64,000 nt of DNA from Candidatus Kaiserbacteria bacterium RIFCSPHIGHO2_01_FULL_53_29 (GTDB taxonomy: Bacteria > Patescibacteriota > Minisyncoccia > Phycocordibacterales > UBA2100). Where the stretch lies: positions 4,040 to 68,039 of the forward strand of contig MFKT01000029.1 of the NCBI GenBank assembly GCA_001781125.1, given 5' to 3'. Every line of letters begins with the position of its first letter. Position 1 is the first letter of the stretch. Under the pieces are notes generated by a model. The model was not told the DNA's origin, did no database searches, and saw only the letters and a program-made list of their open reading frames with translations. Of this stretch, positions 1,142-63,401 are shown piece by piece. A program made the position numbers and the translations under genes.

Positions 1142-1271
1142 CCCATTAGAAGTCCGTCGCTGGTTGTTCATACATCTGTCTTAAACATTACGTTTCGTTT
1201 GCTTTGCTGACTCAATAAGCTTCGCAGAAAAATTTGGATTAAATCTTTCTGCCCAGGACTTCTAACGGGAT

Positions 1272-2144: not shown

Positions 2145-2182
2145 GCCTTTCTATTCTAGTGTTCTTAAGAACATAGGAATAG

Positions 2183-3622: not shown

Positions 3623-3626
3623 GAGA

Positions 3627-4694: not shown

Positions 4695-4728
4695 CGTAAC
4701 ATAGCACCTGTAAACGGCTAGCCAGAAG

Positions 4729-6057: not shown

Positions 6058-6215
6058 GGGTACCTCGCTCATACCCGGCGAGTACAATTTCGAATAATTC
6101 CTGCCGCGGTTTCAACAGCGAAAATATTGCAAAATGTCTGCGTCATGCTTTCTCCCGTACGCTGATTCATACTCATACAAGGCGATTCGAAATTGTCCTG
6201 CCGGGCATAGGACGC

Positions 6216-26578: not shown

Positions 26579-27703
26579 TCATACAATTTCCAAAGACCGC
26601 AACGCGAGTCCTGCGGCGGTGGCGTATTGAAGCGATGTCCGACGATTGATAGGAGGAATGTACTGATCGAATGTACAAATATGTTGCCAGATATCTCCGA
26701 TTGTGGTTGGCGCTTGTACGCGCCCCGCAATGTAATCCGCAAGACCGTTCAGATTTGAGCTGCCCCCGACCAAGATCACAGCCCCCACGGGCGTCATGCG
26801 ATCGCCCCGTTCATTTCTGCGCGTGTCCCAGTAGTGATAATGGCGCGTGACCTCATCCGCAAGTGCAGAAGCAATTCCCATGATCGCGTCGAGGCCGGGA
26901 GATTTGGTGCCGCCCTCGGGGAGAAGTCCCTGATCGTTGCGAAAGGCCATGGCAGATTCAGCGGACATGGAAAGCTTCTCCATCAGCGCACGAGTGATCC
27001 CGTCGCCTCCCACCTCGACCGTCGATGTGAAAATAGGAATACCGCGCTTGAGGACCGCAAAGCCGGTGCGCGCCCGCCCGAAATCCACGAGCAACGTGAC
27101 GGGCTCATCGGATTTTCCTGATGAGACGGTGCGCGCGATGGAGCGCGCTTCGATCTCAAGCGAAAGAAGTCCGATGCCTGCCGCACCGAATGCGGCAATG
27201 TAATTTTCAGCGAGTTCGCGGGGAAAGACCGCAACGCCGATCTCTTGTCCTTCCCCTTCGTCACGCTCTTCTATGACATCAAAATCAAAGATCGCCGCGG
27301 AAGGCGCGATCGGGACCCGGCCTTCAAATCCGAATTCGATCATCTGCAACACGTCCTCGCGGGTCGTGGCATCCGGTACATGCATCTCGAAAACGTATGC
27401 GGCTTCCTCGGGAAGCGCTGCGTGTGCATACTCGACCCCTCCGAGATTTTTCTTGACTCTGTTGAGAGATTGCGCAAGCGCAGGAATATCTTTGATCGTT
27501 CCATTGACGACGACACCCTCGTGCAGAGGCTCTTCTCCGTATGTTTGCACGCGATACGCGTTGCTGGATGGCGAGAGGACAAGCCATTTGATCGATGCAT
27601 CAGAAATATCGATGCCGGCAGCACGGGGAAAGAGCCGTACGGGTGTCGGGAACCACCGCGCGAGCGCGTTTGAAAAGTTATGCAATCCGCCTGAAAGCTG
27701 CAT
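26579..27703 (-). CDS. pilM: type IV pilus assembly protein PilM (actin-like ATPase fold)
   Basis: GIDISDASIKWLVL start, DFG.A.TGFAV, ILVGGSSNLNGL motifs typical of PilM. Confidence 0.75.
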   Translation of the reverse strand: MQLSGGLHNFSNALARWFPTPVRLFPRAAGIDISDASIKWLVLSPSSNAYRVQTYGEEPLHEGVVVNGTIKDIPALAQSLNRVKKNLGGVEYAHAALPEEAAYVFEMHVPDATTREDVLQMIEFGFEGRVPIAPSAAIFDFDVIEERDEGEGQEIGVAVFPRELAENYIAAFGAAGIGLLSLEIEARSIARTVSSGKSDEPVTLLVDFGRARTGFAVLKRGIPIFTSTVEVGGDGITRALMEKLSMSAESAMAFRNDQGLLPEGGTKSPGLDAIMGIASALADEVTRHYHYWDTRRNERGDRMTPVGAVILVGGSSNLNGLADYIAGRVQAPTTIGDIWQHICTFDQYIPPINRRTSLQYATAAGLALRSLEIV

Positions 27704-29914: not shown

Positions 29915-30664
29915 TTACGCAGAGCGTAGCTGACCCTTGAGCGCCTCGTTCTCCTCCTTTACTCCGATTACTTCAGTATTTTTCCCCGCAATTGCCACTT
30001 CAAGATCTCGTTTCACCTTTTCAAGTTCAGCAGTTCTTTCTTCCAGGCCCTTTTGCGCCGTCCTGAGTGAGACGATAGATTTCCGTGCTATCTCACACAA
30101 TACCGTGGCAAACACAGCAGCCACAAGAATTGGCACAGAATGGGCGATGACAGAAAAATCATTTCGCCCATAGAAGTATACCCACCCCGGCTCAATATAA
30201 TTCAGGATACCGTGGTGAAGAACCGTAACACCAGCTACGACCCAACCAAGCCGCCAGTCGGCGAAAACCATAAGAAGTGCGATGATGATAAAAAAGTGAA
30301 AGTGCATCTCAATGGAGCCGCCGCTGATGAAAACAAACAAGTAGGAATAGATCGAGAGCGCCACAGTCACCGTAAGCCTCCACAAATAGTGATTTTGTAT
30401 CGTACCGGCCAGAAATGCGGGAACGAGCGTGACCGCAAGTGCGATCAACACCGTAGCAACTGCTTCGGGGATGCTGACGACCCGCCATGCAAGCGGACTC
30501 GGATAAAAAGAGGCGAGCTTTATTATGGAATTTGTGAACGCGAGAAGCGAAAAGACGGCAAAGTGACCCCAGAGCACTTTCAGTATGAAGCGATCCGTCG
30601 CCTCATAGTTGAACGCCGCCTCATATCCCCTATTAATGTCAGAAATGAAATCTATACGCATCAT
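29915..30664 (-). CDS. hypothetical membrane protein with C-terminal coiled coil
   Basis: 6 TM helices then ELEKVKRDLE...ALKGQL coiled coil; ORF 29915..30976 trimmed to Met pair before first TM. Confidence 0.4.
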   Translation of the reverse strand: MMRIDFISDINRGYEAAFNYEATDRFILKVLWGHFAVFSLLAFTNSIIKLASFYPSPLAWRVVSIPEAVATVLIALAVTLVPAFLAGTIQNHYLWRLTVTVALSIYSYLFVFISGGSIEMHFHFFIIIALLMVFADWRLGWVVAGVTVLHHGILNYIEPGWVYFYGRNDFSVIAHSVPILVAAVFATVLCEIARKSIVSLRTAQKGLEERTAELEKVKRDLEVAIAGKNTEVIGVKEENEALKGQLRSA

Positions 30665-30721
30665 TACCAGTGTAACACCACGCTTCGGTACGCAACATTT
30701 CGTACGGTATAGTGAAAGCGT

Positions 30722-31168
30722 ATGACGATCGATATGAAAAATTCCCTTCTCCTTACTGCTGTCCTGTTTCTCGTCATTACGATCGGCCTCTATGTTCCTT
30801 ACCAAAGAAACCAGAGTGTAGACATCGGAATTGAGGCGACTTCCACTATTGACCATCTGACCATCCTCTACACAAACGGCGGATTCGAGCCGCAAAGCCC
30901 AAGGATCCCTGTCGGCACAACGGTTGAATGGATCAATGTATCGGAAAAGCCGCTGTGGGTCGCTTCGGATCCGCACCCATCACACACGAATCTCCCTGGA
31001 TTTGATCAAAAAGGGATCGAGAGCTCTCCAGACATCTCTCTCTATCTCGTGCCCGCACATGCGCATACACGAGCATCGACCTATCTCTACACATTTAAGG
31101 CTTCTGGTCAATGGAAATATCACAACCACCTCGTACCGACCGATCGCGCGCTCATCATTGTGGATTGA
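30722..31168 (+). CDS. secreted cupredoxin-like fold protein (no Cys ligand)
   Basis: signal anchor; VGTTVEWINVSEKPLWVASDPHPSH...YHNHL resembles Cupredoxin_1 domain; His-rich. Confidence 0.45.
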   Translation: MTIDMKNSLLLTAVLFLVITIGLYVPYQRNQSVDIGIEATSTIDHLTILYTNGGFEPQSPRIPVGTTVEWINVSEKPLWVASDPHPSHTNLPGFDQKGIESSPDISLYLVPAHAHTRASTYLYTFKASGQWKYHNHLVPTDRALIIVD

Positions 31169-36564: not shown

Positions 36565-36981
36565 ATGAAAAAACTCACCAAGAGGGGTTTTACCCTTATC
36601 GAATTACTCGTTGTTATCGCTATTATTGGGATTCTTGCGTCGATCGTGCTCGCCTCGCTCAACACAGCTCGTGTAAAAGCCCGCGACGCGCGGCGCCTTG
36701 CTGACGTAGATGCGATCAAGAAAGCTCTCGCCCTCTACAACAACGACAATAATGTCTATCCGGTGTTTGCGGCGAGCACAACCATCACGGGAGCAGATGC
36801 CGTCTCAACGGCACTCGTCGAAGCTGGTTCTATCTCCACGGTACCGTCAGATCCGCAGGGGGGAACGAATACATACCACTACAAGAGCGATGCCACAGGA
36901 GGCACTTACTGGATCGGATTCTGTATGGAGAATGCCAATAATAACCACGTACAGGGCTGCAACAACTTCACTACTCCGTAA
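36565..36981 (+). CDS. type IV pilin / pseudopilin with prepilin N-methylation site
   Basis: KRGFTLIELLVVIAIIGILASIVL class III signal, Cys pair near C-terminus. Confidence 0.8.
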   Translation: MKKLTKRGFTLIELLVVIAIIGILASIVLASLNTARVKARDARRLADVDAIKKALALYNNDNNVYPVFAASTTITGADAVSTALVEAGSISTVPSDPQGGTNTYHYKSDATGGTYWIGFCMENANNNHVQGCNNFTTP

Positions 36982-37537: not shown

Positions 37538-37572
37538 TAGCTACTAGCCACTAGGGTTTAGCCACTAGTGAA
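37538..37572. repeat. left arm of imperfect inverted repeat (TAGCCACTAG x2)
   Basis: tagctactagccactagggtttagccactagtgaa; same arm recurs at 50719..50750. Confidence 0.7.
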
Positions 37573-37910
37573 GAGAGTAATTTGTTCAGCATTCGCATCG
37601 TCTCATTCAATAGACCAGCCGTTTTCGAGACTTCAACGCGGCTTACAAATTGTAACTTCTCGGCAAGTATTAGATGGGTCTCCAATTCCGCACCGGAACC
37701 GAACGCTACCCTTAGAAATTGCACATACTCTGCACGATGCTTGCGTGCAAAACCTTCGGCAATGTTTGCGGGAATCGAGACCGCAGCTCGCCGCATCTGA
37801 CTTATAAGTCCGAACATTTCTTCTTTTGGGAATTTTCGCGTGAGTCGATACACTTCAGCAACAAGTTCTACGCCACGTTGCCATACAATTAAATCTTGGT
37901 ATGACTGCAT
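37551..37910 (-). CDS. four-helix-bundle protein of the 23S rRNA intervening-sequence protein family (PF05635/TIGR02436-like)
   Basis: MQSYQDLIVWQRGVELVAEVYRLTRKFPKEE...IAEGFARK...AFGSGAELETHLILA signature; C-terminus LVAKP-stop encoded by the left repeat arm. Confidence 0.8.
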   Translation of the reverse strand: MQSYQDLIVWQRGVELVAEVYRLTRKFPKEEMFGLISQMRRAAVSIPANIAEGFARKHRAEYVQFLRVAFGSGAELETHLILAEKLQFVSRVEVSKTAGLLNETMRMLNKLLSSLVAKP

Positions 37911-37916
37911 TTTCCA

Positions 37917-37948
37917 GTCGCTAGTGGCTATTGGCTAGTTACTACCAC
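37917..37948. repeat. right arm of imperfect inverted repeat (CGCTAGTGGCTATTGGCTAG)
   Basis: approximate reverse complement of left arm; recurs at 50765..50791; overlaps stop of giant gene A. Confidence 0.7.
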
Positions 37949-40585
37949 GGTTGCATCTTTCGTCCCGCCTGCGAGCGTCTGGCAGTGCAGGAGGAATGTC
38001 GCCTGCGAGAAAACCGGCGACGTGACAGCCGTGCCGCTCACGCTTGTGTTGTAGGAGTTGGCCGCGGTGAAATCCGCCTGATCGGGGCTCGAGATGACAC
38101 ATGATTGCATGCCGGTCGTGACCCAGCCCAAAAGCGCGGTCTTGCCCGAGGCAACGGTCTTGGGGTTGGCGACAAGGATAGTAGAAGGTTTGTTGACTTG
38201 GACGGAGCACTGCGCGCCTGCGGTACGTCCCTGGTCGGTGCAGGTGAGAGCGTAGGTGGCGGTGTTGGCTCCTGCGGGAGGACTACCTATCGTTGTGCTT
38301 GCCACACCTGATTGCGCGCCTGCGGTATCGAAGCCCGAACCCTTGCTCGTGCCTACAGAGCAGGAATACGCGAAGGCTACCATCATGCCGACATCGGCGA
38401 GCTGGGGCTGGCAGGATAATTCGGCCCTGAGCGGAACGAGTGGCGGGGTAGGTGGGGTGGAAGTCGCCGTGCCGGAAGTTACGGTGATGGTTATACTACT
38501 GATAACGTTGCCGTTGGAGGTGAGTTGCACTTGGTACGGGCCGGCAGCTGCGTAGGTATGCGTCTTCGTAAGATTGGCGGGAGGGCAGGTAGCAGCGCCG
38601 CATCCCGAGCCCACGAAATTGGTGCCGTCACCAAAATCAATCGTTGATGGGACCGGTACCATGCCGGTAAAGGTGACCGTAAGGGGTGCGGGACCGGAGG
38701 TTGGATTAGCAGTGAAGTTCGTGTTGGTCGGATTCGGAACGCACTGCCAATTGGTGACGCACTGACCATTCATGACCGGCTGCCACTGTCCGACAGAGCA
38801 GTTTGCAGCAGGTGGAGTCTGCTGCAACTGGAGTTGGCATTGATTGCCGGTGGAGGGCGTGCATTGCTGTGGCTGTTGGGGCGGTGCCGTGATTTGCTGC
38901 TGTTGAACTGGAGCCTGCGGCGCGTACCCCTGCTGCGCGTAGTACTGATTGAGCTGTTGTTGATATTGCTGCTGCTGTTGTTGTTGCTGCTGCTGGTATT
39001 GATACTGCTGCAGTTGGAAATTATATTGTTGCAGCTGCTGCTGGTATTGCTGCTGCCATTGCGCATACGCCTGTGGATCGCTCGGACATTGTTGCGGGGG
39101 CGGAAGAGGCTGCGGGGGCGGTGGTTGATTCAACCCGAGCGCTTTGCCGATCGAGTTCATCATCGAACTCATCGGATTGCCGCCACCGCTACTCGCCGGA
39201 GGACGCGGTGGTTGCTGCTGTTGCTGCGGTTGTTGGAAGGTGCTGTTTATCCTGCAGTCCGGAGGATTGCCACCGTTTGAACATACGGACTGTATCTTAC
39301 AGCCGTTGGCGGGATCGCCGCCGTTCGCGCATTGTTTGGGTGGCTCATTACCCGGCTTGCAGGGAGGCGCGGTACGATCCCTACATATTGTTCCGGGTGG
39401 CGCTTCAGATGACCCCTTTGTGCAGAGGCCAGATGCATCGCATTTGAATCCCAGACTTTCAATATATTTGCGTTCTGCTTCGTTGGCAGGTCTTGCCTCC
39501 CATTTATTATCTTCTATTCGAGAAATGTCTGTCTTGGTTGTCTCCGATGTTATACCACCCGACACCACTGGGCGTTCCGGAGGAGTAAGTGGTGTCGGGC
39601 TCGTGCACCACTCTGGAGGTGAATCCCTCTTACATGCATCAGCAATCGCAGTGTCGACATCTTTAGAATCCTTGTCCGCGTCCGGATCGGGACTGTACGC
39701 GGCGATTTCTTTGATTTTTACCCCATCGGGGGCCTTAAGCGTGCCGTCTGAATCCACAAGCATTTCATTCGTTGAATTCGTAGGGTCCTTACCGAATGCA
39801 CTATTAATGATATCTTGCTGAGTTTGATCGATGCCACAACCCACGAGGCATGAGGGTTCCCACTTGCCCGTCAAGAAATTTTTTCGCACAGTAAAACCAT
39901 CGCTCGACAATTTATCTACGACCAGTGCCTTGTTTATTCCTTTCGAAATGATAGGGACACATCTCATAACCGAACTTATGGGTGAATATGAAGTTGTTGT
40001 GTCAACGCACGCAGTCGTTTTACACGTACCTGGCGATACCTTCGGATTCGGTTCAGCTTTGATCTTAAGGGTGCCGTCTGGCTTAACAGTGACAGTGGCG
40101 GATTTCCCAACGCATTTGAAATTGCCCGGTTTTGCCGGATCGGGGGCAGCAGCAACACAGTCATCGGAGTTGGGGTCCGTTGGTTTAGCAGCTACCTTCG
40201 TCGTAGCTGCAGTTTTTGCTGTAGCAATCGCAATCCCACATTTATTCAAGATTTCCTCATCGACTTTCGCTTTGGCATCCGCTTCAGCTTTCGCTGTAGC
40301 TTCCGCATCAGCCTTTGCTTTGGCATCTGGCGGAGGAGCTGTGGCGGTAGCTGCTGGTGTCGCTGCGGGAGCTGGAAGCAGGTAGGGGACACCACCAGTC
40401 GACGGCATCGCTTGCGTTCTTGGGGGGGGGATGTCTGCGGCAAGAATGGCTCCGGCAGCCTGCTGCGGTTGATTGCCCGTTGGCATAGGAGTAAAAGATT
40501 GGAGCGCTATCGCCGTGACCGCGAGGGCGGCGAGCAGACCTATCACGGGCAAAACAGCAAAACCCCGGGACGCGGATCGGAACAT
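37928..40585 (-). CDS. giant secreted surface protein A (885 aa): A/K-rich, Cys-containing modules, Q/P-rich low complexity, PKD domain
   Basis: signal peptide; PKD signature FTANPTSGPAPLTVTFTG...DFGDGT...HTY; C-terminal 250 aa near-identical to giant B. Confidence 0.7.
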   Translation of the reverse strand: MFRSASRGFAVLPVIGLLAALAVTAIALQSFTPMPTGNQPQQAAGAILAADIPPPRTQAMPSTGGVPYLLPAPAATPAATATAPPPDAKAKADAEATAKAEADAKAKVDEEILNKCGIAIATAKTAATTKVAAKPTDPNSDDCVAAAPDPAKPGNFKCVGKSATVTVKPDGTLKIKAEPNPKVSPGTCKTTACVDTTTSYSPISSVMRCVPIISKGINKALVVDKLSSDGFTVRKNFLTGKWEPSCLVGCGIDQTQQDIINSAFGKDPTNSTNEMLVDSDGTLKAPDGVKIKEIAAYSPDPDADKDSKDVDTAIADACKRDSPPEWCTSPTPLTPPERPVVSGGITSETTKTDISRIEDNKWEARPANEAERKYIESLGFKCDASGLCTKGSSEAPPGTICRDRTAPPCKPGNEPPKQCANGGDPANGCKIQSVCSNGGNPPDCRINSTFQQPQQQQQPPRPPASSGGGNPMSSMMNSIGKALGLNQPPPPQPLPPPQQCPSDPQAYAQWQQQYQQQLQQYNFQLQQYQYQQQQQQQQQQYQQQLNQYYAQQGYAPQAPVQQQQITAPPQQPQQCTPSTGNQCQLQLQQTPPAANCSVGQWQPVMNGQCVTNWQCVPNPTNTNFTANPTSGPAPLTVTFTGMVPVPSTIDFGDGTNFVGSGCGAATCPPANLTKTHTYAAAGPYQVQLTSNGNVISSITITVTSGTATSTPPTPPLVPLRAELSCQPQLADVGMMVAFAYSCSVGTSKGSGFDTAGAQSGVASTTIGSPPAGANTATYALTCTDQGRTAGAQCSVQVNKPSTILVANPKTVASGKTALLGWVTTGMQSCVISSPDQADFTAANSYNTSVSGTAVTSPVFSQATFLLHCQTLAGGTKDATVVVTSQ

Positions 40586-40662: not shown

Positions 40663-40854
40663 ATGACAGATGAGGCTCTTACGGACATTGAGCATGCGAT
40701 TGAGAAAGCCACGCCGGATCAGCAGCGACGTTTTCTCGCGCGCCTGCCGCACGTGCTACATCTCGCGCCTGACCAGTATGCTCGAATGAAAGCTGCTGAG
40801 CCGTCATTCGCGTTCTGGAATAATGCCGCTGATGCGGTCTATGACAACCTATAA
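40663..40854 (+). CDS. putative antitoxin of MazEF-like pair
   Basis: small acidic ORF overlapping the toxin start by 14 nt; no direct family match. Confidence 0.4.
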   Translation: MTDEALTDIEHAIEKATPDQQRRFLARLPHVLHLAPDQYARMKAAEPSFAFWNNAADAVYDNL

Positions 40855-41203
40855 GCGCGGACAGATCGTGCTCGTTCCGTTCCCCTTCACTGATTTCTCG
40901 ACGCTCAAACAGCGCTCCGCGCTCGTACTTTCTCCGACCGCATACAATCGCAAACAAAACGACGTCATAATTGTCGCAATCACCTCGCAACTTGAGTCGT
41001 ACAAGAACCGGAAAGACGTTTACCGCATCGACGGACAAGAACAACGTGACTCCGGACTCCCACGACCCGGGATCGTGCGTCCGGACAAAATCACTGTCGT
41101 CGACCAGCGGCTTATCCGTCGCATTCTCGGAACACTTCCGCAGCCGACCGTTGATCGTATCGCGGAGTTGACCGCGCGTGCCATCGGCTACATGCGGGCC
41201 TGA
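40841..41203 (+). CDS. MazF/PemK family endoribonuclease toxin
   Basis: GQIVLVPFPFTD...RSALVLSP...VIIVAITS PemK fold signature. Confidence 0.7.
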   Translation: MTTYKRGQIVLVPFPFTDFSTLKQRSALVLSPTAYNRKQNDVIIVAITSQLESYKNRKDVYRIDGQEQRDSGLPRPGIVRPDKITVVDQRLIRRILGTLPQPTVDRIAELTARAIGYMRA

Positions 41204-41209
41204 TATTCA

Positions 41210-41281
41210 TGCCCTCGCCGGGAATCGAACCCAGATTACGAGCTCCGCAAGCTCGCGTTCTATCCGTTGAACTACGAGAGC
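41210..41281 (-). tRNA. tRNA-Arg (anticodon read as GCG)
   Basis: acceptor GCTCTCG/CGAGGGC, D-arm GTTC-AACGGATA-GAAC, stem CGAGC/GCTCG with loop TTGCGGA; sequence-similar to tRNA-Arg at 25020. Confidence 0.6.
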
Positions 41282-41483: not shown

Positions 41484-44400
41484 TTACGGCATCACGGTAA
41501 TCACTCCCGACATACCGACTCCTCCCGGAGCGCCATGGAAGCGACAGTAATACGGGTAGGTGCCCGCAGTCGTGAAGGTCCGCGAGAAATTTGCCCCCGG
41601 AGAAAGGCCGGTATCGAAACTTCCGCCATCGGCCGTCACGGTATGTTGCATCGCGCCCGTATTGGTCCATGTCACCGTACTCCCTTTTGCGATAGTTATT
41701 GTGCGGGGTGAAAAGGAGTCGTCCGCCGCGGAGATATTGATGAGGGCCGGACTTGAGCTCGTGTTGGATGTGCTCGATGTGGTTGGCGTGGATGATGTGC
41801 TCCCCGCCCCTGCCGTACCCGTGCTTGCACCAAGCGTGACCGTCACACTCGCGCGCTTGCTCGCTCCCCCCTGCGTCGTGCAATCCAATTGGAACGTCGC
41901 GTTGGATGTGATGGGAGAGGTCGCCGCGGCACCGGTCGTACTTGTGTTGTACGCATTGTCCGCCGTGAAGTCGGCCTGATCGGGGCTCGAGATGACGCAG
42001 GATCGCATGCCGGTCGTGATCCAGCCGAGAAGTGTGGTCTTGCCCGAGGCAACGGTCTTGGGGTTGGCGACGAGGACGATCGAGGATCTGTTGACTTGAA
42101 CGGAGCATTGAGCGCCTGCGGTGCGTCCCTGGTCGGTGCACGTGAGAGCGTAGGTGGCGGTGTTGGCGCCTGCCGGAGGCGCCCCAAGGGTGGCCGTTGC
42201 GGAGCCCGACTGGTCTCCACCCGTATCGAAGCCGGAACCCTTGCTCGTCCCTGTCGAGCAGGAGTACGCAAGAGCGAGAGTCATGCCAACATCAGCGAGC
42301 TGGGGCTGGCATGCGAGATGGGCAGTGAGGGGAATGACCGCGGGAGCGGTGGTGGAAGTTGGGGTGGGATCCGACGTATCCGGAACACATCGCCAATTCG
42401 TGAGACAACTCAAACCTGCGACGGTCGAGCTCGCCGGCTTCCACGAGCCATTCCGGCATTCCGATGCATCGGGTTGGTCGGGTCGTGCGGGACACTGCGC
42501 ATTATTGCGCACGCACTGCCAACTCGTGAGACAACTCGATCCTGCGACGGTCGAGGTCGCCGGTTTCCACGAGCCATTTAGGCATGTCGCGGGATTAGGC
42601 TCCGCCGGCTGCGCGGGGCATTGCGGGGTGGGGTTGGGCACACACTGCCAGGCAGTGATGCACGCGCCATTCATCGTCGGCTTCCATGAACCGACGTTGC
42701 AGCTGGACGCCGGAGGTTGCTGTTGCAATTGCTGCTGACACTGACCGCCCGTCGCGGGCTTACACGGCAAGGGCTGCACGGGCGCCGTTGTTTGTGATGG
42801 TGGCGGAGGCGTCAAGCCCTGTTGTGCGTAATACCGACTCAACTGTTGCTGGTACTGTTGCTGTTGCTGATACTGCTGCAGCTGATAATTGTATTGCTGC
42901 AACTGCTGCTGATATTGCTGCTGTTGTTGGGCGTAAATTTGTGGATCGGTGGAACAAACGGGAGCTTCCGGCTGGGGCGTGAGGCCCTTGGCCAAACCCT
43001 CAAGGAACGATGCCAGTGGATTGCCCGGCGGCTTCTTCTGCGACTGCGGAATCTCCGGCATCTTCGGCGCTCCGCCTCCTCCGCCAGCTCCTTTTCCATC
43101 ACCTCCCGCTCCACCTCCCCCTTTACCAGTTCCGCCTTTTTCGGCTCCGGCTTTTGCGGCTTTTGCGTCCGCTGCATCTTTCGCGGTTTTTGCCTCCTTC
43201 GCAGCTTTTGCGTCTGCCGCGTCTTTTTCTGTTTTTGTTTTGGTGGTATCTGGGGGCTCTTTACCCTCATCTTTGACACAACTCCCGTCCGAAGCACATG
43301 TGTATTCGTTATCCTCAAGATACTTTTTCTGCTCCTCCGAGTCCGCCTTGGCTTTCCATTTACCTTCTTCGTCTCTCGTTGCGATTATGTCGTCAACTGA
43401 TCCTTTTGAACAACTTCCATCGGAGCCGCAAGTGTACCCGCTGGCCTCAAGGTATTGCTTCTGCTCGGCAGATTCAGCGCGGGCCGTCCATTTTCCATTC
43501 CCATCGGAGCGAGCGACAATGTCATCAACCGAACCTTTGGAGCAGGCGCCGCTAGAGCTGCATGTATATCCATTGTCTTCGAGGTACCTCTGTTGCTCTG
43601 TTGTTTCTGCTTGTGCGGTCCAGTTACCATTCCCTTCAGAGTGGGCGACGATATCATCGACGCTTACAGGTTCTGACGGCGCGACCGAGGGTTCGATGGC
43701 AGCTGGCATATCTGTCGCACGAAGCCCGGGATCCCGCACTCCTGCGACGTCCCGTCCCCAAAAACTATCCCGCCAGTTAGAGTCAGACGCTCCAGTACAC
43801 GAGCCTCCCGACAAGCATGGATACTGGTTCTCCATTGCATACAGATCATTTTTAATCTGCCCAAGTACAGCATCTCTTTCGGGGTTTGGCGCTCCCCCAC
43901 CATTCATGAAGCCACGCTGATCTGAGAGCATTTTTTCTCGAAAAACAAGTTCGTTATATTTGCCGACATCGCTCACGGTGGGATTTTGCGCAAGCGCTGC
44001 AGAATACGCGGCGTTGATATCCTCTCCGTAGTTGGCATGCAGCGTTTGCTTTTCCGAATCTGAAAGTCCGGTATACCAATTTAAACCTCTGTCGGGCGAC
44101 CCTGCGGAGTATCCTTGGAGCTCTGAACCGCTCTGCGCGTCCCATGTGGCAGCGGGAAGCTGTTGCCCAGGCAGAGGATTTTCCTGTATCGTGGCGGATC
44201 GATCAGGAAAGGAACCTTCGGCCGGCGGAGGGGAATTAAAATCAAACGCTGGAGCTTGTGTCATGGCTCCCGGCAAATTCTGTGCCCATGTATCGAAGGT
44301 CGTTGCCGCGGCGACACCTGGCTCGAGAGCGGCAGGCGGTGGGTCGGCCGCAGACGAGAGCGGGAATCCGTCGTCGCTACGAGTTGGTGAGATGGGGAGA

Positions 44401-46676
44401 TTGATAGATTGATCACGTGTAATCAACGCCCCAATCTTTTCATCACCGAACTGATCGACGGTACCGTTGTAGCGGCCGGTTAGAGGATCTCGGATACTAA
44501 AGTTATCTCCGTCTCTTGTGATCTCAAGATTCGGTGCCGGCCGATATGTACCGTCTGTTATATCGTTCAGCTTCGAATCGTAGTTCCATCCGTCCTTTGC
44601 CTGTTGGACTGCCTGTTCGACGGTCTGGCCAGACTCGACTGGGATACGCGCGTACTCATCATTGGGTCCGTAGACTGACACCACCGTAGTACCGTCGCGG
44701 AAAGTAGTGCTGCGCACCCCCACGCCGTCGGCGTCGTACCTCGTAAAAGGGTCCATGTGAGATATAGGTATTGAGGTGTCTATTGGATAAGGTGGTCTTG
44801 CTTCACCACCATCCTCGAGCCCGAGGCTAGCAAGCTGTGGAGTAGTGGCGAGAAGCGCATTCATGCGCGCGAGGTCGTCTCGCTGGTTGGAAAGCGAATA
44901 ATCAGAGTCGCCTAATTCTTGCAGTTGTTTCTCCTCAGCAGGAGTCGGGTCTCGATTTTCTGACCTTATCGTGGCGTCAAGCTGGTCGCTTCTGATTTCA
45001 TTCGCATTGATAGTATCATCCAACGCATCAAGCCGAGCAGCATTCTCGCGGTAGCTTGCCGCGGGATCTTGAAGAGCTGTTGCGAGCTCTCCAATGGTAC
45101 CGGAATAGTTGTTTACATTGATCCGATCTCCCGCGGGCGTGATCAGGTAATCGCTATTCTCACCATCACTACCAGTGCGATCAAGGGTGTATCCGTCGGC
45201 AAAGGGGTATGCTTGTCCGTCATCAAAATCGCGAATGTTCAGGTTTCTGTACGCTGCGCTGTCTGGCCCTGCATCAAAATCGGTCGGGCTTGGGTTCACC
45301 CAGCCACCGTTCGCATTTGCTGCAGCGCTGGCTACACTCGGATCAAGTGCGGAGGATGGTTCTGGGGGCAAAATGCTGTCTGTGCCTGGTGCCGGTAAAC
45401 TGCCGGATGACGTCTGTTCGCCCGGCTGTACCAACATAACAGGTCCATCAAAACTATACGGCGCAGTTCCAGGTCCGTTCACTGCTTCGACTGCAGCATT
45501 ATACGCTTGCTGTGATGCGCGATAGCCGAGCTTGGCTTGATTCCATGCCGCTCGAGCTGCCGGATCGGTGGGGTTTTCTTCGAATGCTCGTTGTGCAGCA
45601 TCATATGTTGCGGCCGCTTCAACCGCGCTGCGCTGCGTGTCGGCGATGGTCGGAGCATTTGTGTCCGCAGTCTGTGGCGAAGGCGTTGTAGGCCAACTGC
45701 CATTGAACACCGGAGGTTCTGCGCTGTTTATGTAATCCTGCGTGCTTTGCGCCACCGTCTGCCCAAAACCGCCCTGTGGTTGAGTAGCCGGATTTTCACC
45801 CAAAGACCCGGTGTTTCCGGTCGGATTCTCGAAAGCCGATTGATCGAACGTCGCGTCAGTCCGCTGGTACTCTGTTGTTTGAAATAACGCTGGGTCCGGT
45901 ACCGGAGTTCCCTGGACCGTGGGACTTTGCGGCTGCAGCGTGGCGGTGTCGGTGCGCAACGCATCATTGAGCAGCGCGCTTTCACCCCGCAGCCGTGTAA
46001 GCTGACTTTCTTGTTCCGCAGTAAAGTCCCCGCTTCCCGATTTCGATTGCTCCAGTATTTGTTCGAGCTCGGATATTTCGTTGTTGACTCGGGTGAGCTC
46101 TCTTTGCTTTTCGTCGAGCGCGTTATCAATTTGAGTGTTCGCAGGACCACTCGGAGTCTTCGGCACTGCTGGATCTTCTTCATCAGGAATTTTTGGCATA
46201 CTCGGAATGCCTCCTCCGCCTGACCCGCTCTCTGAGCCTGCACCGGACTTCGGAGTCTGTGTTGCTTTCCATTCTCCATCCGCATCCCTATACTCATCGC
46301 CATGAGCAACGTCTTGGCTAACGCAATGCCCTTTTACATTGCTCGTTCCTACCTCCAACCCCTCGCCGCATAATTTACCGGATTCGCTGTAATTCGGATA
46401 TTTGCATGAGTAGTCGTATGACGATGAGCATAGAGCATCTAGTGATTTATCTCCCCCTGCTTGCGCCAGCTGCGAGCGCGCATCGTATGCATATGAAGCG
46501 GCAGCCGCGTCGCGAAATGCCTCCGGAGTTTGCGCGAGCGGCGAGGGGAAGGCATCGCTCATGCTTGCGGAGACGCCGAGAATCGCCGCAAGAATGAGTA
46601 TAAACAGAGAAGAAGCTCCGCGATTTTGAGGACGCCGAGAGTCGGCCGAAGTTTTCTTATGGGGCATGTAGCCCAA
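41484..46676 (-). CDS. giant secreted surface protein B (1730 aa) with repeated Cys modules and C-terminal type-1 copper cupredoxin domain
   Basis: signal peptide; 4x ~35 aa repeat (SVDDIVARSDGNGKWTARAE..EQKQYLE..GYTC..G.CSKG); C-terminus TVTWTNTGAMQHTV...YYCRFHGAPGGVGMSGVITV (His, Cys, His, Met ligands). Confidence 0.7.
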   Translation of the reverse strand: MGYMPHKKTSADSRRPQNRGASSLFILILAAILGVSASMSDAFPSPLAQTPEAFRDAAAASYAYDARSQLAQAGGDKSLDALCSSSYDYSCKYPNYSESGKLCGEGLEVGTSNVKGHCVSQDVAHGDEYRDADGEWKATQTPKSGAGSESGSGGGGIPSMPKIPDEEDPAVPKTPSGPANTQIDNALDEKQRELTRVNNEISELEQILEQSKSGSGDFTAEQESQLTRLRGESALLNDALRTDTATLQPQSPTVQGTPVPDPALFQTTEYQRTDATFDQSAFENPTGNTGSLGENPATQPQGGFGQTVAQSTQDYINSAEPPVFNGSWPTTPSPQTADTNAPTIADTQRSAVEAAATYDAAQRAFEENPTDPAARAAWNQAKLGYRASQQAYNAAVEAVNGPGTAPYSFDGPVMLVQPGEQTSSGSLPAPGTDSILPPEPSSALDPSVASAAANANGGWVNPSPTDFDAGPDSAAYRNLNIRDFDDGQAYPFADGYTLDRTGSDGENSDYLITPAGDRINVNNYSGTIGELATALQDPAASYRENAARLDALDDTINANEIRSDQLDATIRSENRDPTPAEEKQLQELGDSDYSLSNQRDDLARMNALLATTPQLASLGLEDGGEARPPYPIDTSIPISHMDPFTRYDADGVGVRSTTFRDGTTVVSVYGPNDEYARIPVESGQTVEQAVQQAKDGWNYDSKLNDITDGTYRPAPNLEITRDGDNFSIRDPLTGRYNGTVDQFGDEKIGALITRDQSINLPISPTRSDDGFPLSSAADPPPAALEPGVAAATTFDTWAQNLPGAMTQAPAFDFNSPPPAEGSFPDRSATIQENPLPGQQLPAATWDAQSGSELQGYSAGSPDRGLNWYTGLSDSEKQTLHANYGEDINAAYSAALAQNPTVSDVGKYNELVFREKMLSDQRGFMNGGGAPNPERDAVLGQIKNDLYAMENQYPCLSGGSCTGASDSNWRDSFWGRDVAGVRDPGLRATDMPAAIEPSVAPSEPVSVDDIVAHSEGNGNWTAQAETTEQQRYLEDNGYTCSSSGACSKGSVDDIVARSDGNGKWTARAESAEQKQYLEASGYTCGSDGSCSKGSVDDIIATRDEEGKWKAKADSEEQKKYLEDNEYTCASDGSCVKDEGKEPPDTTKTKTEKDAADAKAAKEAKTAKDAADAKAAKAGAEKGGTGKGGGGAGGDGKGAGGGGGAPKMPEIPQSQKKPPGNPLASFLEGLAKGLTPQPEAPVCSTDPQIYAQQQQQYQQQLQQYNYQLQQYQQQQQYQQQLSRYYAQQGLTPPPPSQTTAPVQPLPCKPATGGQCQQQLQQQPPASSCNVGSWKPTMNGACITAWQCVPNPTPQCPAQPAEPNPATCLNGSWKPATSTVAGSSCLTSWQCVRNNAQCPARPDQPDASECRNGSWKPASSTVAGLSCLTNWRCVPDTSDPTPTSTTAPAVIPLTAHLACQPQLADVGMTLALAYSCSTGTSKGSGFDTGGDQSGSATATLGAPPAGANTATYALTCTDQGRTAGAQCSVQVNRSSIVLVANPKTVASGKTTLLGWITTGMRSCVISSPDQADFTADNAYNTSTTGAAATSPITSNATFQLDCTTQGGASKRASVTVTLGASTGTAGAGSTSSTPTTSSTSNTSSSPALINISAADDSFSPRTITIAKGSTVTWTNTGAMQHTVTADGGSFDTGLSPGANFSRTFTTAGTYPYYCRFHGAPGGVGMSGVITVMP

Positions 46677-46723: not shown

Positions 46724-46990
46724 CTAGGCTGCGAGCGCGCGGAGCTGCCTGGCAGCGCGGGATTTCATACGAGCGGCCGTGTTGCGGTGGATGGTGCCGT
46801 TCTTGGTAGCCTTGTCGACGGCCTGATAGAGCACTTTGAGCTGCCCCTCCGCGTCCCCCGAGTTTTTTCCGCCCACAAATCTGTCCATCTGCTTCACTGC
46901 CATTTTCATCGCCCCTTTGCGCCGCACGTTGTGCACGCGACGGCGAAGCGCGACGCGCTGTGCTTTCTTTGCCGACCTCGTGTTTGCCAT
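46724..46990 (-). CDS. rpsT: 30S ribosomal protein S20
   Basis: MANTRSAKKAQR...basic helical S20 pattern. Confidence 0.9.
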   Translation of the reverse strand: MANTRSAKKAQRVALRRRVHNVRRKGAMKMAVKQMDRFVGGKNSGDAEGQLKVLYQAVDKATKNGTIHRNTAARMKSRAARQLRALAA

Positions 46991-47138
46991 TGGACCGGAT
47001 GCTACCGCATCTTCCCCTTCGGCGCAACAATGCGAACTGTTTGCTCTGCGTGCACCAATCGCCCCAAAAGTGATATTCCGTAACGTGCGCTACCGCGCAA
47101 TCTGGGAATATGAGATATGTACACCCTGGAAAACAACT

Positions 47139-47729
47139 TCATCTTTCCTTACGCAAACGAAAGCGCTCTCGTACCCACCCATCGTTTTCTATGGATTCAA
47201 CAACTACATAGAGCACGTCTTTCCCGATCTGCAACTCCGCTTTCGCGAGTATAATAAACTCCTCACAATCGTATGGATACACCCAGACACTGTCCTGCAA
47301 GCGCAAAAAGCCGCACTCTTGCATGAGGCGTCGAATACGATCGCGTGTCGCTCTTCTTTGCTGCGGGATATCAAACATCACGATGCGGTATCGCCCATCC
47401 CATCGCTTCGGTTGATGCGCCGTGAGCTTTGCTTTCTCCTGCTCCAGCAGAAGCGCCTGCCGACCTGCACTAGTAAGCTCAATATATTTCTTACCGTTGC
47501 GCTGTACGAACCGGACATGCCCCTTGACGATAAGACGCGAAACCGCAGTCCGAGCTTGGAATGCAAGTTTGTAACGTTTCTTGCCAATGATATGCGGAAG
47601 GATTTGAAAGACGTTTGGTGCGAGCGCCGCCACGGCAATAATGCCCGCGGCTCCTATCACAGAGAGTACCGCATCTTTCACGTACCGCTTTCTTCGCACC
47701 CCACGAGCGTGAGATTCCGTCTTCCCCAT
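47139..47729 (-). CDS. PaaX-like protein (winged-helix + Cas2/VapD-fold C-domain) with N-terminal hydrophobic segment
   Basis: WDGRYRIVMFDIPQQRRATRDRIRRLMQECGFLRLQDSVWVYP resembles PaaX C-domain/Cas2 fold; no cas genes or array nearby. Confidence 0.4.
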   Translation of the reverse strand: MGKTESHARGVRRKRYVKDAVLSVIGAAGIIAVAALAPNVFQILPHIIGKKRYKLAFQARTAVSRLIVKGHVRFVQRNGKKYIELTSAGRQALLLEQEKAKLTAHQPKRWDGRYRIVMFDIPQQRRATRDRIRRLMQECGFLRLQDSVWVYPYDCEEFIILAKAELQIGKDVLYVVVESIENDGWVRERFRLRKER

Positions 47730-47765
47730 ATTCCCTATTGTACGCTATGGCGCAATGTAGGGAAT
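47729..47765. promoter_or_regulatory. inverted repeat TATTCCCTA-N19-TAGGGAATA at start of PaaX-like gene (candidate operator)
   Basis: 9 bp perfect arms in divergent region between 47139..47729 and ruvA. Confidence 0.3.
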
Positions 47766-47844
47766 ATCGAATACGGAAATTGTGTCGTGGACAATGCGCG
47801 GGAGAGCGTTTCGCGCGAGTCGTTGATGCACTATACTTGGGTTT

Positions 47845-48417
47845 ATGATAGGACAACTTACCGGCATGGTCTTTGCAGTGCGCATTGGACATGCAATCAT
47901 CTCTGCAGGTGGTGTGGGGTACAAAGTATTTGCAACACGCGAATTGCTCGCGACACTCCGGCCCCAGAAAGAGGTGGCGCTCTGGACTCACTTGGCGGTG
48001 CGCGAGACCATCCTCGATCTGTACGGTTTTTCCACCGAAGAAGAGTTGCGGCTGTTCGAACTTCTCCTCACGGTCTCCGGCATCGGGCCCCGTTCCGGTC
48101 TCGCTATCCTCGATATTGCATCGGTCGAGACGCTGCGCTCTGCGATCGCGGGAGGGAACGCATCGTATCTCACCAAAGTCTCCGGTATCGGCAGGAAAAC
48201 AGCTGAAAAAATCGTGCTCGAGTTGAAGGACAAAGTCGGCATCGGAGGGGAAGGAGGTGCCTCAGCGCTCCGTCATGACGAAGAGGCCCTCGAAGCAATG
48301 AAAGCACTGGGCTATTCGCAAGGAGAGGCACGCGATGCGCTTAGAAAAGTACCACAAGACGTAGAGCGATCAAGTGATCGATTACGTGAGGCACTTCGAA
48401 TTTTGGGCAGACAGTAA
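47845..48417 (+). CDS. ruvA: Holliday junction helicase subunit RuvA
   Basis: MIGQLTG...SGIGPRSGLAIL HhH motifs, C-terminal domain III. Confidence 0.9.
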   Translation: MIGQLTGMVFAVRIGHAIISAGGVGYKVFATRELLATLRPQKEVALWTHLAVRETILDLYGFSTEEELRLFELLLTVSGIGPRSGLAILDIASVETLRSAIAGGNASYLTKVSGIGRKTAEKIVLELKDKVGIGGEGGASALRHDEEALEAMKALGYSQGEARDALRKVPQDVERSSDRLREALRILGRQ

Positions 48418-61223: not shown

Positions 61224-61656
61224 ATTCGTTAATCAGAGTGATGATACGCCCGTCATCCACAATGTCGAATCTGATATTAGTGGCGTGTGGCGGGATCGCA
61301 CCCACTACCCGCTCGGGCCACTCCAGAACAATGAGATTCCCCGAATCCTGAAGCAGCTTTTCCCAACCTAACACCTCAAGCTCGTGTGCGCTTTTCAAGC
61401 GATATGCATCAATATGAATTAAACGCTGAAATTTCTGTCCTTCGAGCTTATATATCTTTTCGAGCACAAAAGTCGGGCTCGTCACCACTTCCTCAACTCC
61501 GAGAGCCTTCGCGATTCCCTGCGCAAAAGTGGTCTTCCCCGCACCGAGCTCACCGGAAAGCGTTGCGACCACGGCTTGTTGCCGAGGCTGCAGATGAGAA
61601 ACAAATTCTGCCGCATGAGCCTGCAATTCTTCAGCTGAATTGGAACGAAGTTCCAT
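61204..61656 (-). CDS. tsaE: tRNA threonylcarbamoyladenosine biosynthesis ATPase TsaE
   Basis: Walker A LSGELGAGKTTFAQG, TSPTF motif. Confidence 0.8.
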   Translation of the reverse strand: MELRSNSAEELQAHAAEFVSHLQPRQQAVVATLSGELGAGKTTFAQGIAKALGVEEVVTSPTFVLEKIYKLEGQKFQRLIHIDAYRLKSAHELEVLGWEKLLQDSGNLIVLEWPERVVGAIPPHATNIRFDIVDDGRIITLINEYGEEKI

Positions 61657-61694
61657 ATGCAGAGTGTACCAAAGGCGCGCTGAGATACGTTACA

Positions 61695-63401
61695 ATGGTG
61701 GGAATGGCTACTCAGTTCAATGAGAAGAAGCAGGATGAGCGACTGCATGACCTGCGCGGGCGCGAGGAAGAGCAGCTCGCTGAAATGCTGTCGGGCAAAT
61801 ACGGCGTCGAGTACGCCGATCTCACATCCAAGGCGATCGACACCGATGCGCTGCGGCTCGTCGAAGAAAAGATCGCGCGTGCAGCGGAAGTGGCAGCCTT
61901 TCACAAGGTCAACAAAAATCTTTTTCTCGCGATGCGCTCCCCCGAGCGCCCCGATGCCGTGCAGGTGATACAGAATCTGGAGCACTTGGGCTACGAGGTG
62001 CGCCGCTTCATCGTATCGCGTGCATCGCTCGATCACGCATGGGATCGCTACCACGACATTTCCTACGCGACCGAGACAGAGGCCGGTATCTTGACGCTCT
62101 CCAACAAAACCATTCAGGAGATGCTGCAAAAATTGAAGAAGCTCGAAGATGTGCGGCTCGAGATCCAATCGCACGCAGGTTCTAAAGACACGCACCGCAT
62201 CTCGCGCGTGCTGGAGATCATCATGGGGGGTGCCTTATCCTTGGGCGCATCCGACATTCACCTGGAGCCCGAGGAAGAGGCCGTGCGCATGCGCTATCGC
62301 CTGGACGGCGTCTTGATAGAGGCCACGATGTTCGATGCTCCGACCTATGCGCTCATCTCGTCGCGCATCAAATTACTCTCCGGTCTCAAACTCAACATAA
62401 AAAGCGCAGCACAAGACGGCCGCTTCTCAATTGTCGTCAACGAAAAAGAGATCGAGATACGCACAAGCGTCCTCCCCGGTGCCTACGCCGAGACGATCGT
62501 CATGCGTGTCTTGGATCCGACGACGATCGCGCTTCCCATGGAAGCGCTCGGCTTCGACAAATACCTCATGGAAATATTCAATAAGGAAATTGCGAAACCC
62601 AACGGCATGATATTGAACACCGGTCCGACGGGCTCCGGGAAGACGACGACTCTCTATGCTTTCTTGCGGCAGGTGCACAATCCGGGAATAAAGATAGTGA
62701 CTATCGAAGACCCGATAGAGTATCACTTGCCGGGTATCGTGCAGACGCAAGTGTCCAAGGACTATTCTTTCGCGCTTGGGCTCCGCTCGACACTGCGCCA
62801 AGACCCGGATGTCATCATGGTCGGCGAGATCCGTGATGCTGAAGTGGCATCAACCGCCGTGCACGCATCGCTCACCGGTCACCTCGTATTCTCGACACTC
62901 CACACCAACGATGCCGCCGGTACTTTCCCCCGCCTTATCGACATGGGCGTGAATGCCGACATCCTGGGCGCGGCGGTCACGGTGGCAATGGCACAACGCC
63001 TCGTGCGCCGCTTATGTCCGCACTGCCGCGTCTCGCAGCCCTTGAGCGCAGAAGATAAAAAACTGATGGAGCCGCTTCTGCGCAACATTCCCCACGCCGA
63101 TGAATTGCCCGCCAATCGCGACACGATGTGGCTACCCAAGGGCTGCGAGAAATGCGGCGGGCTCGGATACAAAGGCCGCATCGCGGTCGTCGAGGTCGTG
63201 CTCATGGATCACGAGATCGAAGATTGTGTACGACACACCTCAAGCGAGCGCGACATTTGGAAAGCGGCGACGCACCAAAAGATCCGGCGCATGGGACAAG
63301 ATGGTATCGTGAAAGTATTGCAGGGCGTGACCTCGCTCGAAGAACTCGGTCGCGTTGTTGACCTACATGACGAAGTCATGTTGGAAACTATCGGTAACTA
63401 A
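61695..63401 (+). CDS. pilB: type IV pilus assembly ATPase PilB (GspE family)
   Basis: Walker A GPTGSGKTT, Asp box, His box, tetracysteine CPHC...CEKC; ORF 61386.. trimmed to Met after tsaE. Confidence 0.85.
   Translation: MVGMATQFNEKKQDERLHDLRGREEEQLAEMLSGKYGVEYADLTSKAIDTDALRLVEEKIARAAEVAAFHKVNKNLFLAMRSPERPDAVQVIQNLEHLGYEVRRFIVSRASLDHAWDRYHDISYATETEAGILTLSNKTIQEMLQKLKKLEDVRLEIQSHAGSKDTHRISRVLEIIMGGALSLGASDIHLEPEEEAVRMRYRLDGVLIEATMFDAPTYALISSRIKLLSGLKLNIKSAAQDGRFSIVVNEKEIEIRTSVLPGAYAETIVMRVLDPTTIALPMEALGFDKYLMEIFNKEIAKPNGMILNTGPTGSGKTTTLYAFLRQVHNPGIKIVTIEDPIEYHLPGIVQTQVSKDYSFALGLRSTLRQDPDVIMVGEIRDAEVASTAVHASLTGHLVFSTLHTNDAAGTFPRLIDMGVNADILGAAVTVAMAQRLVRRLCPHCRVSQPLSAEDKKLMEPLLRNIPHADELPANRDTMWLPKGCEKCGGLGYKGRIAVVEVVLMDHEIEDCVRHTSSERDIWKAATHQKIRRMGQDGIVKVLQGVTSLEELGRVVDLHDEVMLETIGN

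Follow-up and report, generated by a model that had tools for sequence, protein, structure and literature searches.

Does a giant exported protein of a Kaiserbacteria cell end in a blue copper domain, and if it does, what could the domain do there? The question is raised by a 64,000-nt stretch of the Candidatus Kaiserbacteria genome RIFCSPHIGHO2_01_FULL_53_29 (contig MFKT01000029.1, positions 4,040 to 68,039), which we analysed as a whole and call the window. It contains no N and has a G+C content of about 53%. The open reading frame (ORF) in question lies on the minus strand at 41484..46676. It runs from a TTG at 46676 to the stop codon at 41484-41486, counts 1,730 codons and is open across its whole length. 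Its fourth codon is an ATG (46667), which is the likely start, so the gene would occupy 41484..46667 and encode an exported protein of 1,727 amino acids. Exactly this product is recorded on 10 public metagenome contigs, all of them from ENA sources. The initial annotation, made from the letters of the window, had spoken of a 1,730-residue protein, a length that is right for codons counted from the TTG, while the likely product has 1,727 residues. It had named no strand, and the C-terminal peptide it quoted is present in this minus-strand ORF. Residue numbers below follow the 1,730-codon numbering from the TTG.

The C-terminal domain (residues 1645-1730, 86 residues; 41487..41744, minus strand) was identified by Pfam, AlphaFold, Foldseek and sequence alignments to PDB entries. 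Comparison with the cupredoxin Pfams by HMMER, as had been proposed in the initial annotation, gave two matches above the gathering thresholds: Cupredoxin_1 (PF13473, 37 bits against 27, residues 1634-1718) and Copper-bind (PF00127, 34.8 bits against 21.2, residues 1651-1728). When a profile of 44 homologues was run against the 699 ORFs from all six reading frames of the window, the domain region reached E=1e-37, which puts the cupredoxin match far beyond chance. A homologue search with the cupredoxin domain alone found 201 sequences. The Pfam/NCBIfam scan of the 1,730 residues revealed no domain besides the cupredoxin, and no copper-oxidase or NirK catalytic domain. The domain stayed below the strict NCBIfam equivalog and subfamily cut-offs of the plastocyanin (TIGR02656, 37.9 against 87.85), amicyanin (TIGR02657, 27.8 against 110.2) and halocyanin (TIGR03102, 33 against 93.8) models. 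The domain is thus plastocyanin-like, not a plastocyanin.

Next to the domain models, we looked at the fold and the copper ligands. With the 44-sequence alignment AlphaFold2 produced an all-beta model of seven strands with a predicted local distance difference test (pLDDT) score of 93.8, so the structure prediction suggested at the outset yielded a cupredoxin beta-sandwich. Foldseek placed the model beside the copper-bound Cupredoxin_1 protein of B. anthracis (4HCF), a cupredoxin of N. maritimus (5FC9), plastocyanin (1BXU) and amicyanin, with a probability of 1.00 and TM-scores of 0.73-0.78. AlphaFold and Foldseek thus agree on the Greek-key beta-sandwich of cupredoxins. The predicted ligands are His1678 (codon 41643-41645), Cys1711 (41544-41546), His1714 (41535-41537) and Met1722 (41511-41513), all read from the minus strand, and all four are invariant columns in the alignment of the 44 homologues. 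In sequence alignments to PDB entries, His1678, Cys1711 and His1714 fell on the matching ligands of plastocyanin 1BXU and of the pendant domain of 9CCK, and the His/Cys/His/Met consensus columns of the profile line up with the crystallographic ligands of amicyanin and 9CCK. From this homology we infer that the four residues converge on one copper site.

The ligand loop reads C1711-x2-H1714-x7-M1722. The C-x2-H part and the Met had been described correctly before, but the gap to the Met is x7 and not x8. The long loop, HG[AG]PGGxGM, is a trait of the subfamily: 28 of 120 small relatives and 105 of 303 tandem-copy domains have it. Judged by its sequence and predicted fold, the C-terminal 86 residues form a genuine type-1 (blue) copper cupredoxin from the lineage of amicyanin and plastocyanin. 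The type-1, plastocyanin-like character claimed for this C-terminus is thereby borne out by the Pfam scores, the four invariant ligands and the fold matches in the PDB.

The GenBank record raises the possibility that the cupredoxin does not belong to the giant protein at all. Only an 85-residue protein is annotated there (A2851_05045, 99% identical), and it begins with MNISAADD. Its start corresponds to the ATC codon at 41739..41741 of the window, an Ile codon (1646) inside the 1,727-residue ORF. Such a record would fit a fusion created by assembly or annotation, the true gene being a small stand-alone cupredoxin. The junction also lies in low-complexity Ser/Thr-coding DNA, where short-read assembly can err, and the full-length product is known from ENA sources only. 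However, the window is 100% identical to contig k141_1246567 of ENA ERZ4903055 over 22.6 kb. The junction DNA shows 0 nt differences in contigs of ERZ4903055, ERZ4903070 and ERZ28563591, the last being a re-assembly of an Anantharaman Rifle sample, and a contig of ERZ4903185 differs from the window by two synonymous changes across the junction. The same junction is thus kept in assemblies of four samples, and the uninterrupted frame in a window free of N also speaks against an artefact. An extracytoplasmic copper protein of 85 residues that starts at ATC and has no signal peptide is not credible either: a signal peptide or an anchor is present in each full-length homologue that we inspected, and 65 of the 120 small homologues have a lipobox-like motif. 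The ATC-start call by NCBI is probably an evidence-driven annotation artefact, and we regard the 85-residue record as an annotation fragment. An artefactual fusion is therefore highly improbable in our view. As far as the DNA and protein sequences tell, the fusion is real and the cupredoxin truly ends a giant exported protein.

What is the cupredoxin attached to? Directly before it lies a Ser/Thr/Gly-rich linker of 28 residues (41745..41828, minus strand), predicted to be disordered (pLDDT <50, model residues 187-215). Before the linker there are two immunoglobulin (Ig)-like beta-sandwich domains (41829..42329, minus strand; AlphaFold pLDDT >90, Foldseek), which form the conserved C-terminal module of a protein family. 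The copper domain had been given about 110 residues in the initial annotation, but the folded part has only about 86 and stands behind the linker. Between the second Ig-like domain (Ig2) and the cupredoxin, inspection of the sequence and a hydropathy scan found no signal-peptide-like sequence, only the Ser/Thr linker. At the other end of the protein, hydropathy scan and family alignment marked a basic stretch, a conserved Arg-Gly and the sole hydrophobic segment, a signal peptide or signal anchor (46551..46667, minus strand). This segment spans residues 19-44, after the basic stretch, and the scan detected no other transmembrane-like segment. The protein contains 33 Cys, many of them as short-spaced pairs within repeats. 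The N-terminal segment and the paired Cys support an extracytoplasmic location of the giant protein, and these features, together with the two confidently modelled Ig-like domains, agree with its earlier description as a surface protein. Foldseek gave only generic matches for the Ig pair, among them the tandem-Ig surface proteins SGBP-B and the GhpA 'grappling hook', and alpha-2-macroglobulin.

To place the fusion among its relatives, we ran an exhaustive HMMER search with residues 1296-1730 against 1.84 billion representatives. It returned 25,711 matches at E<=1e-3, and the best 150 of these were classified with local hidden Markov models (HMMs). The module, made of a Gln-rich segment, Cys-rich repeats and the two Ig-like domains, was found in 66 of the 150 (265-1,107 residues), which share 53-63% identity with the giant protein over it. 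The other 84 (310-3,670 residues) carry 3-12 tandem cupredoxins. None of the best 150 of the 25,711 matches combined the Ig module with a cupredoxin, and the combination was also missing from 45 related loci in GTDB representative genomes and JGI metagenomes. The GTDB representative genomes scanned contained no genome of the same species, and JGI metagenomes yielded no match to an exact 60-nt pattern taken from the cupredoxin DNA. A word-indexed search with all 1,727 residues returned 8,000 candidates, none of which scored, the low-complexity segments rich in Gln, in Lys/Ala/Gly and in Ser/Thr having probably saturated the candidate list. The search for relatives with the same fusion, which had been suggested as a check, thus found none, in line with the claimed rarity.

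So far, proteins with this module have been named only in Kaiserbacteria records. Their architecture consists of a hydrophobic N-terminus with Arg-Gly, a variable low-complexity middle, the Gln-rich segment, the Cys-rich repeats and the two Ig-like domains. An alignment of 60 sequences revealed invariant Cys, Trp and Gly columns in the module, and the giant protein shares the N-terminal RGxSxLAAL motif. After Ig2, 44 of the 59 aligned relatives have only 0-7 further residues, while the remaining 15 carry a tail of 83-164 residues at the position where the giant protein has its cupredoxin. One of these tails (P0152) gave a weak Pfam match to Kre9/KNH (E=4e-4, below gathering). Another relative, P0255 (1,107 residues), runs collinear with the giant protein in N-terminus, middle and module, and a tail replaces the cupredoxin; a Pfam scan of P0255 gave no match. 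Among the family members aligned, only the giant protein has a cupredoxin. Since the tails stand at the same position, the family C-terminus after Ig2 is, as far as the alignment tells, a position used for variable domains, and this suggests a variable display site. We infer that the cupredoxin is a lineage-specific add-on at this C-terminus, acquired by domain accretion or swapping. A family member on JGI Ga0155144_106 (295..6264) is at least 1,990 residues long and ends right after the two-Ig module, so giant size is not unique to the window protein within its family.

A second copy of the module is encoded in the window itself. The 885-residue paralogue (OGG52384.1, Candidatus Kaiserbacteria; 37928..40585, minus strand) has the same Gln-rich, Cys-rich and two-Ig module with 57% identity and ends right after Ig2, with no cupredoxin. 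It lies outside the fusion and serves as the comparison copy. At the DNA level the Ig-module copy at 38043-38413 is 82% identical, and 36 of the 60 mismatches fall on third codon positions. We also considered a diversity-generating retroelement and rejected it: the 374-nt paralogue repeat contains all types of mismatch with no adenine bias, and the ORFs scanned included no reverse transcriptase. Directly downstream of the paralogue there is a gene for a 23S-rRNA-IVS / bAvd-like four-helix-bundle protein (37551..37910, minus strand), which had prompted the idea of a retroelement.

The cupredoxin had been called unusual for being tethered. This holds for its fusion to the Ig module, which is rare, but tethering itself is common. 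The closest relatives of the domain are proteins of 73-154 residues with 45-63% identity, annotated as 'plastocyanin' in metagenome-assembled genomes (MAGs) of Chloroflexota, Actinomycetota and Saccharibacteria (P0002-P0120). Besides the lipobox-like motifs mentioned above, 3 of the 120 small homologues have an LPXTG motif, and a Saccharibacteria-MAG homologue of 165 residues has a signal peptide and a C-terminal transmembrane segment. With lipobox, LPXTG and transmembrane anchors in the closest relatives, surface tethering is the rule for the subfamily. Like the giant protein, these small anchored proteins are extracytoplasmic and tethered, and many share the long loop. They differ in being small and having a signal peptide of their own, whereas here the tether is a multidomain protein of 1,640 residues. 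Long-loop domains also stand at the C-terminus of other extracytoplasmic proteins, for example of a 722-residue lipoprotein, which to the eye looks like a sugar-dehydrogenase beta-propeller protein, and they occur in multi-copy giants with PKD domains.

Among the solved structures, the pendant domain of Nmar_1354, a two-domain multicopper oxidase of Nitrosopumilus maritimus (9CCK), was the best relative by profile (E=4e-29), followed by amicyanin. In Nmar_1354 the pendant type-1 cupredoxin hangs on a 15-residue linker, and structure and spectroscopy have established experimentally that it is metalated (PMC11761707). Both proteins have a single C-terminal type-1 cupredoxin behind an unstructured linker (15 and 28 residues) and share the His2Cys set with axial Met. 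However, the carrier of Nmar_1354 is a copper enzyme that is presumably fed by the domain, while the giant protein has no recognisable catalytic or redox domain, and its carrier is four times longer. The loop is also 5 residues longer here, C-x2-H-x7-M against C-x2-H-x2-M. Amicyanin and plastocyanin (PF00127; 1AAC, 1BXU) have the same fold and the same order of His...Cys-x2-His...Met, and they aligned with E=7e-12 for 1BXU and, for amicyanin, with E=4e-7 as single sequence and 1e-20 by profile. The loop of the giant protein is 3 residues longer than that of plastocyanin and 5 longer than that of amicyanin, and the domain is not a free soluble carrier.

The proteins with tandem cupredoxins are a further group for comparison. 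Examples are P0121 (3,670 residues, 12 copies and PKD domains) and P0122 (2,938 residues), and PKD domains are found in some members. They are very large, extracytoplasmic and retain the ligands (P0121 keeps the motifs in 12 of 12 copies), and their domains are about 40-45% identical to the cupredoxin of the giant protein. They contain 3-12 tandem copies, in contrast to the single copy here, where the remainder of the protein is unrelated. A literature search under poly-, multi- and tandem-cupredoxin terms found no paper on such proteins. What came to light is a large class of proteins with as many as 12 blue-copper domains in tandem, apparently undescribed so far, and its members could be copper-based electron relays. 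The literature also offers nirK-bearing Kaiserbacteria and Harrisonbacteria bins, each of which encodes a cupredoxin proposed as the electron donor of NirK (PMC5581439, Danczak et al. 2017; PMC12931201). The Kaiserbacteria cupredoxin of that study comes from the same candidate phylum and superfamily and was likewise proposed as an extracytoplasmic carrier. Those cupredoxins are separate putative proteins in bins with nirK, whereas here we found a fusion to a giant surface protein and no nirK in the window. With the domain and its surface tethering already ordinary, the novelty lies in the carrier, a non-enzymatic surface protein of about 1,640 residues from the Candidate Phyla Radiation (CPR).

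What could the domain do at this place? Taking the evidence as a whole, we favour with some reserve that it is a copper-loaded one-electron carrier tethered to the cell surface, added on to a giant exported protein of Kaiserbacteria. Since the cupredoxin lacks its own signal peptide, its export would be that of the giant protein. In CPR cells, which are believed to lack an outer membrane, a soluble carrier would drift off. The giant protein as an anchor would do the job that lipid, LPXTG and transmembrane anchors do in the closest relatives. On a stalk that is long and flexible, the copper centre would ferry electrons between one partner close to the membrane and another, extracytoplasmic partner. 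NirK, which is not encoded in the window, would be a candidate for such a partner, the only one proposed for the clade in the literature.

Several points weigh against an electron carrier. A redox partner (NirK, multicopper oxidase, cytochrome or oxidase) is not encoded in the 64-kb window, and no conserved partner gene was found beside two close small homologues. Electron transfer requires contacts closer than ~14 Angstrom at both ends, and one copper site at the end of a stalk of about 1,600 residues is a strange arrangement for it. It is homology, rather than measured distance, that points to convergence of the predicted ligands. No argument for a function can be drawn from conservation, as the fusion has been seen in a single organism. 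The name of the genome is missing from the files of PMC5581439 that contain the NirK alignment and tree, which is a weak point given that MAGs are incomplete.

The missing partner genes would suit a domain that binds copper or recognises a ligand with no electron transfer. Such a 'head' could serve as a tip for adhesion or ligand binding, scavenge or buffer copper, or act as a structural cap, and it would be swappable with a Kre9/KNH-like Ig domain. The relatives make this a serious rival, since they have a non-redox domain at the same position: tails in 15 of the 59, with the one weak Kre9/KNH match. The carrier is also adhesin-like, with its tandem Ig-like domains, Cys-rich repeats and long low-complexity stalk. 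On the other hand, none of the four type-1 ligands has been lost, and the nearest relatives of the domain, at the 45-63% identity given above, are small stand-alone cupredoxins with the architecture of carriers. Cupredoxin folds that have lost their redox role usually lose the Cys as well, as did a second cupredoxin-like protein of the window (ORF 30722..31168, see below). We consider a purely binding head unlikely, and keep the electron carrier as the preferred reading.

If the electron carrier is accepted, its partner may lie outside the cell. CPR bacteria (Patescibacteria) are generally seen as fermentative epibionts without electron-transport chains, and the few redox proteins they have, such as NirK and small cupredoxins, are unexplained. 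In an episymbiont with no respiratory chain, the copper centre at the end of the stalk, which might even be borne on a pilus, could swap electrons directly with redox proteins on the host surface or with extracellular acceptors. We think this very unlikely, but if it is true, interspecies or extracellular electron transfer would here take a tethered form based on copper. A redox-active domain with a partner in the host or the environment would bear on how these cells gain energy or interact with their hosts. In any case, an exported type-1 copper domain predicted as the far end of a giant surface protein is a concrete and testable object, and it brought to light a Kaiserbacteria family whose C-terminus appears to serve as an exchangeable display site. 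Should the giant protein be merely another anchor for an ordinary carrier, the fusion would be a modest architectural curiosity of a single organism.

Is the stalk part of a pilus? The N-terminal motif of the family, RG[ASF]S[VIL]LAALVLVAILG, resembles a prepilin signal that lacks Glu5, as in GspK. The giant protein could then be a prepilin-like minor pilin of the GspK type, cut by prepilin peptidase after the conserved Arg-Gly. The copper centre would in that case stand at or along a type IV pilus and could probe a host cell or a mineral by electron transfer. In hhalign the family N-terminus aligned in register with the type IV pilin of the window (KRGFTLIELLVVIAIIG) with a probability of 45.6% and a pairwise E=2e-4. 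The window encodes this pilin (36565..36981) together with PilM (26579..27703) and a PilB-type ATPase (61386..63401), and only about 950 nt separate the pilin gene from one family paralogue. However, the giant protein gave no match to N_methyl (PF07963 / TIGR02532-type) or any pilin HMM, and both Glu5 and Phe1 are missing. Among 30 family N-termini there was likewise no N_methyl match, and the isolated matches to GspH, GspK and prepilin-dependent models (E=0.05-0.2, one member each) were insignificant. Short hydrophobic segments are easily aligned, and the pilus genes are scattered and not clustered with the giant gene. With an hhalign probability of only 45.6% and no significant pilin HMM, pilus association of the giant protein stays speculative, and a role as minor pilin appears quite unlikely.

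The initial annotation had also linked the giant protein to a separate cupredoxin-like ORF at 30722..31168 (plus strand). The gene itself turned out to be real. It encodes a membrane-anchored protein of 148 residues that has 32 homologues of about 150 residues, and its cupredoxin-like nature was supported by hhalign (probability 90%) and a local HMM (E=1.6e-7); Pfam gave no match at threshold (E=0.16). The link found no support. The ligand columns are occupied by Leu, Asn, Val and Asp, with no Cys or Met ligand, and the gene is 10 kb away from the giant gene on the opposite strand, with a Cache/histidine-kinase/response-regulator set and unrelated genes between them. Its family has four invariant His and the motifs WVASDPHPxHTxLPGFD and WxYHNH, and these may form a metal site made of His only, at the pole usually occupied by type-1 copper. 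The gene calls on the identical ENA contig include a 353-residue ORF at 29915..30976 (minus strand) and omit the overlapping gene for the 148-residue protein. An internal Met near 30664 is probably the true start of this membrane protein, and with it both genes would remain intact.

Returning to the giant protein, the part between the N-terminal segment and the Ig pair consists, from the N-terminus on, of a long low-complexity region, 44-residue repeats, a Lys/Ala/Gly-rich spacer, a Gln/Tyr-rich segment and Cys-rich repeats, all read from the minus strand. Ala, Ser, Gly, Thr, Pro, Asp and Gln together make up about 60% of all residues. Two independent contigs from different samples both end at window position 45954, in the N-terminal third of the gene, and this shared end suggests strain-level variation or an assembly-breaking repeat there. 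Three repeats of about 44 residues (43278..43664) follow the pattern SVDDIVAxSxGNGxWTAxAExxEQxxYLExxGYTCxSxGxCSKG with one C-x5-C pair each. The spacer (43062..43256) stood out in the composition scan by its low entropy (2.5) and contains no hydrophobic residues. The family-conserved Gln/Tyr-rich segment (42816..42956) has the consensus CxTDPxxYxQQQQQYQQxLQQYNYQLQQY in the 60-sequence alignment. The Cys-rich repeats, CxNGSWKP...C.T.WQCVP in three copies (42378..42764), appear in the DNA as a 126-nt tandem repeat.

The gene content of the window is in keeping with a CPR bacterium and includes many tRNA synthetases, PolA, the scattered type IV pilus genes, the 23S-IVS protein and an LTD-domain protein. 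A MazF/PemK toxin gene and a tRNA-Arg(GCG) are located between the two paralogous surface-protein genes (40823..41281), and on the ENA contig a 63-residue partner is called upstream of the toxin gene. On the other side of the giant gene, a 456-residue ORF at 46836..48206 (plus strand) is probably spurious, as the identical contig has rpsT (S20), a PaaX_M-domain protein and RuvA at this place. rpsT shares the strand of the giant gene and ends 56 nt upstream of it.

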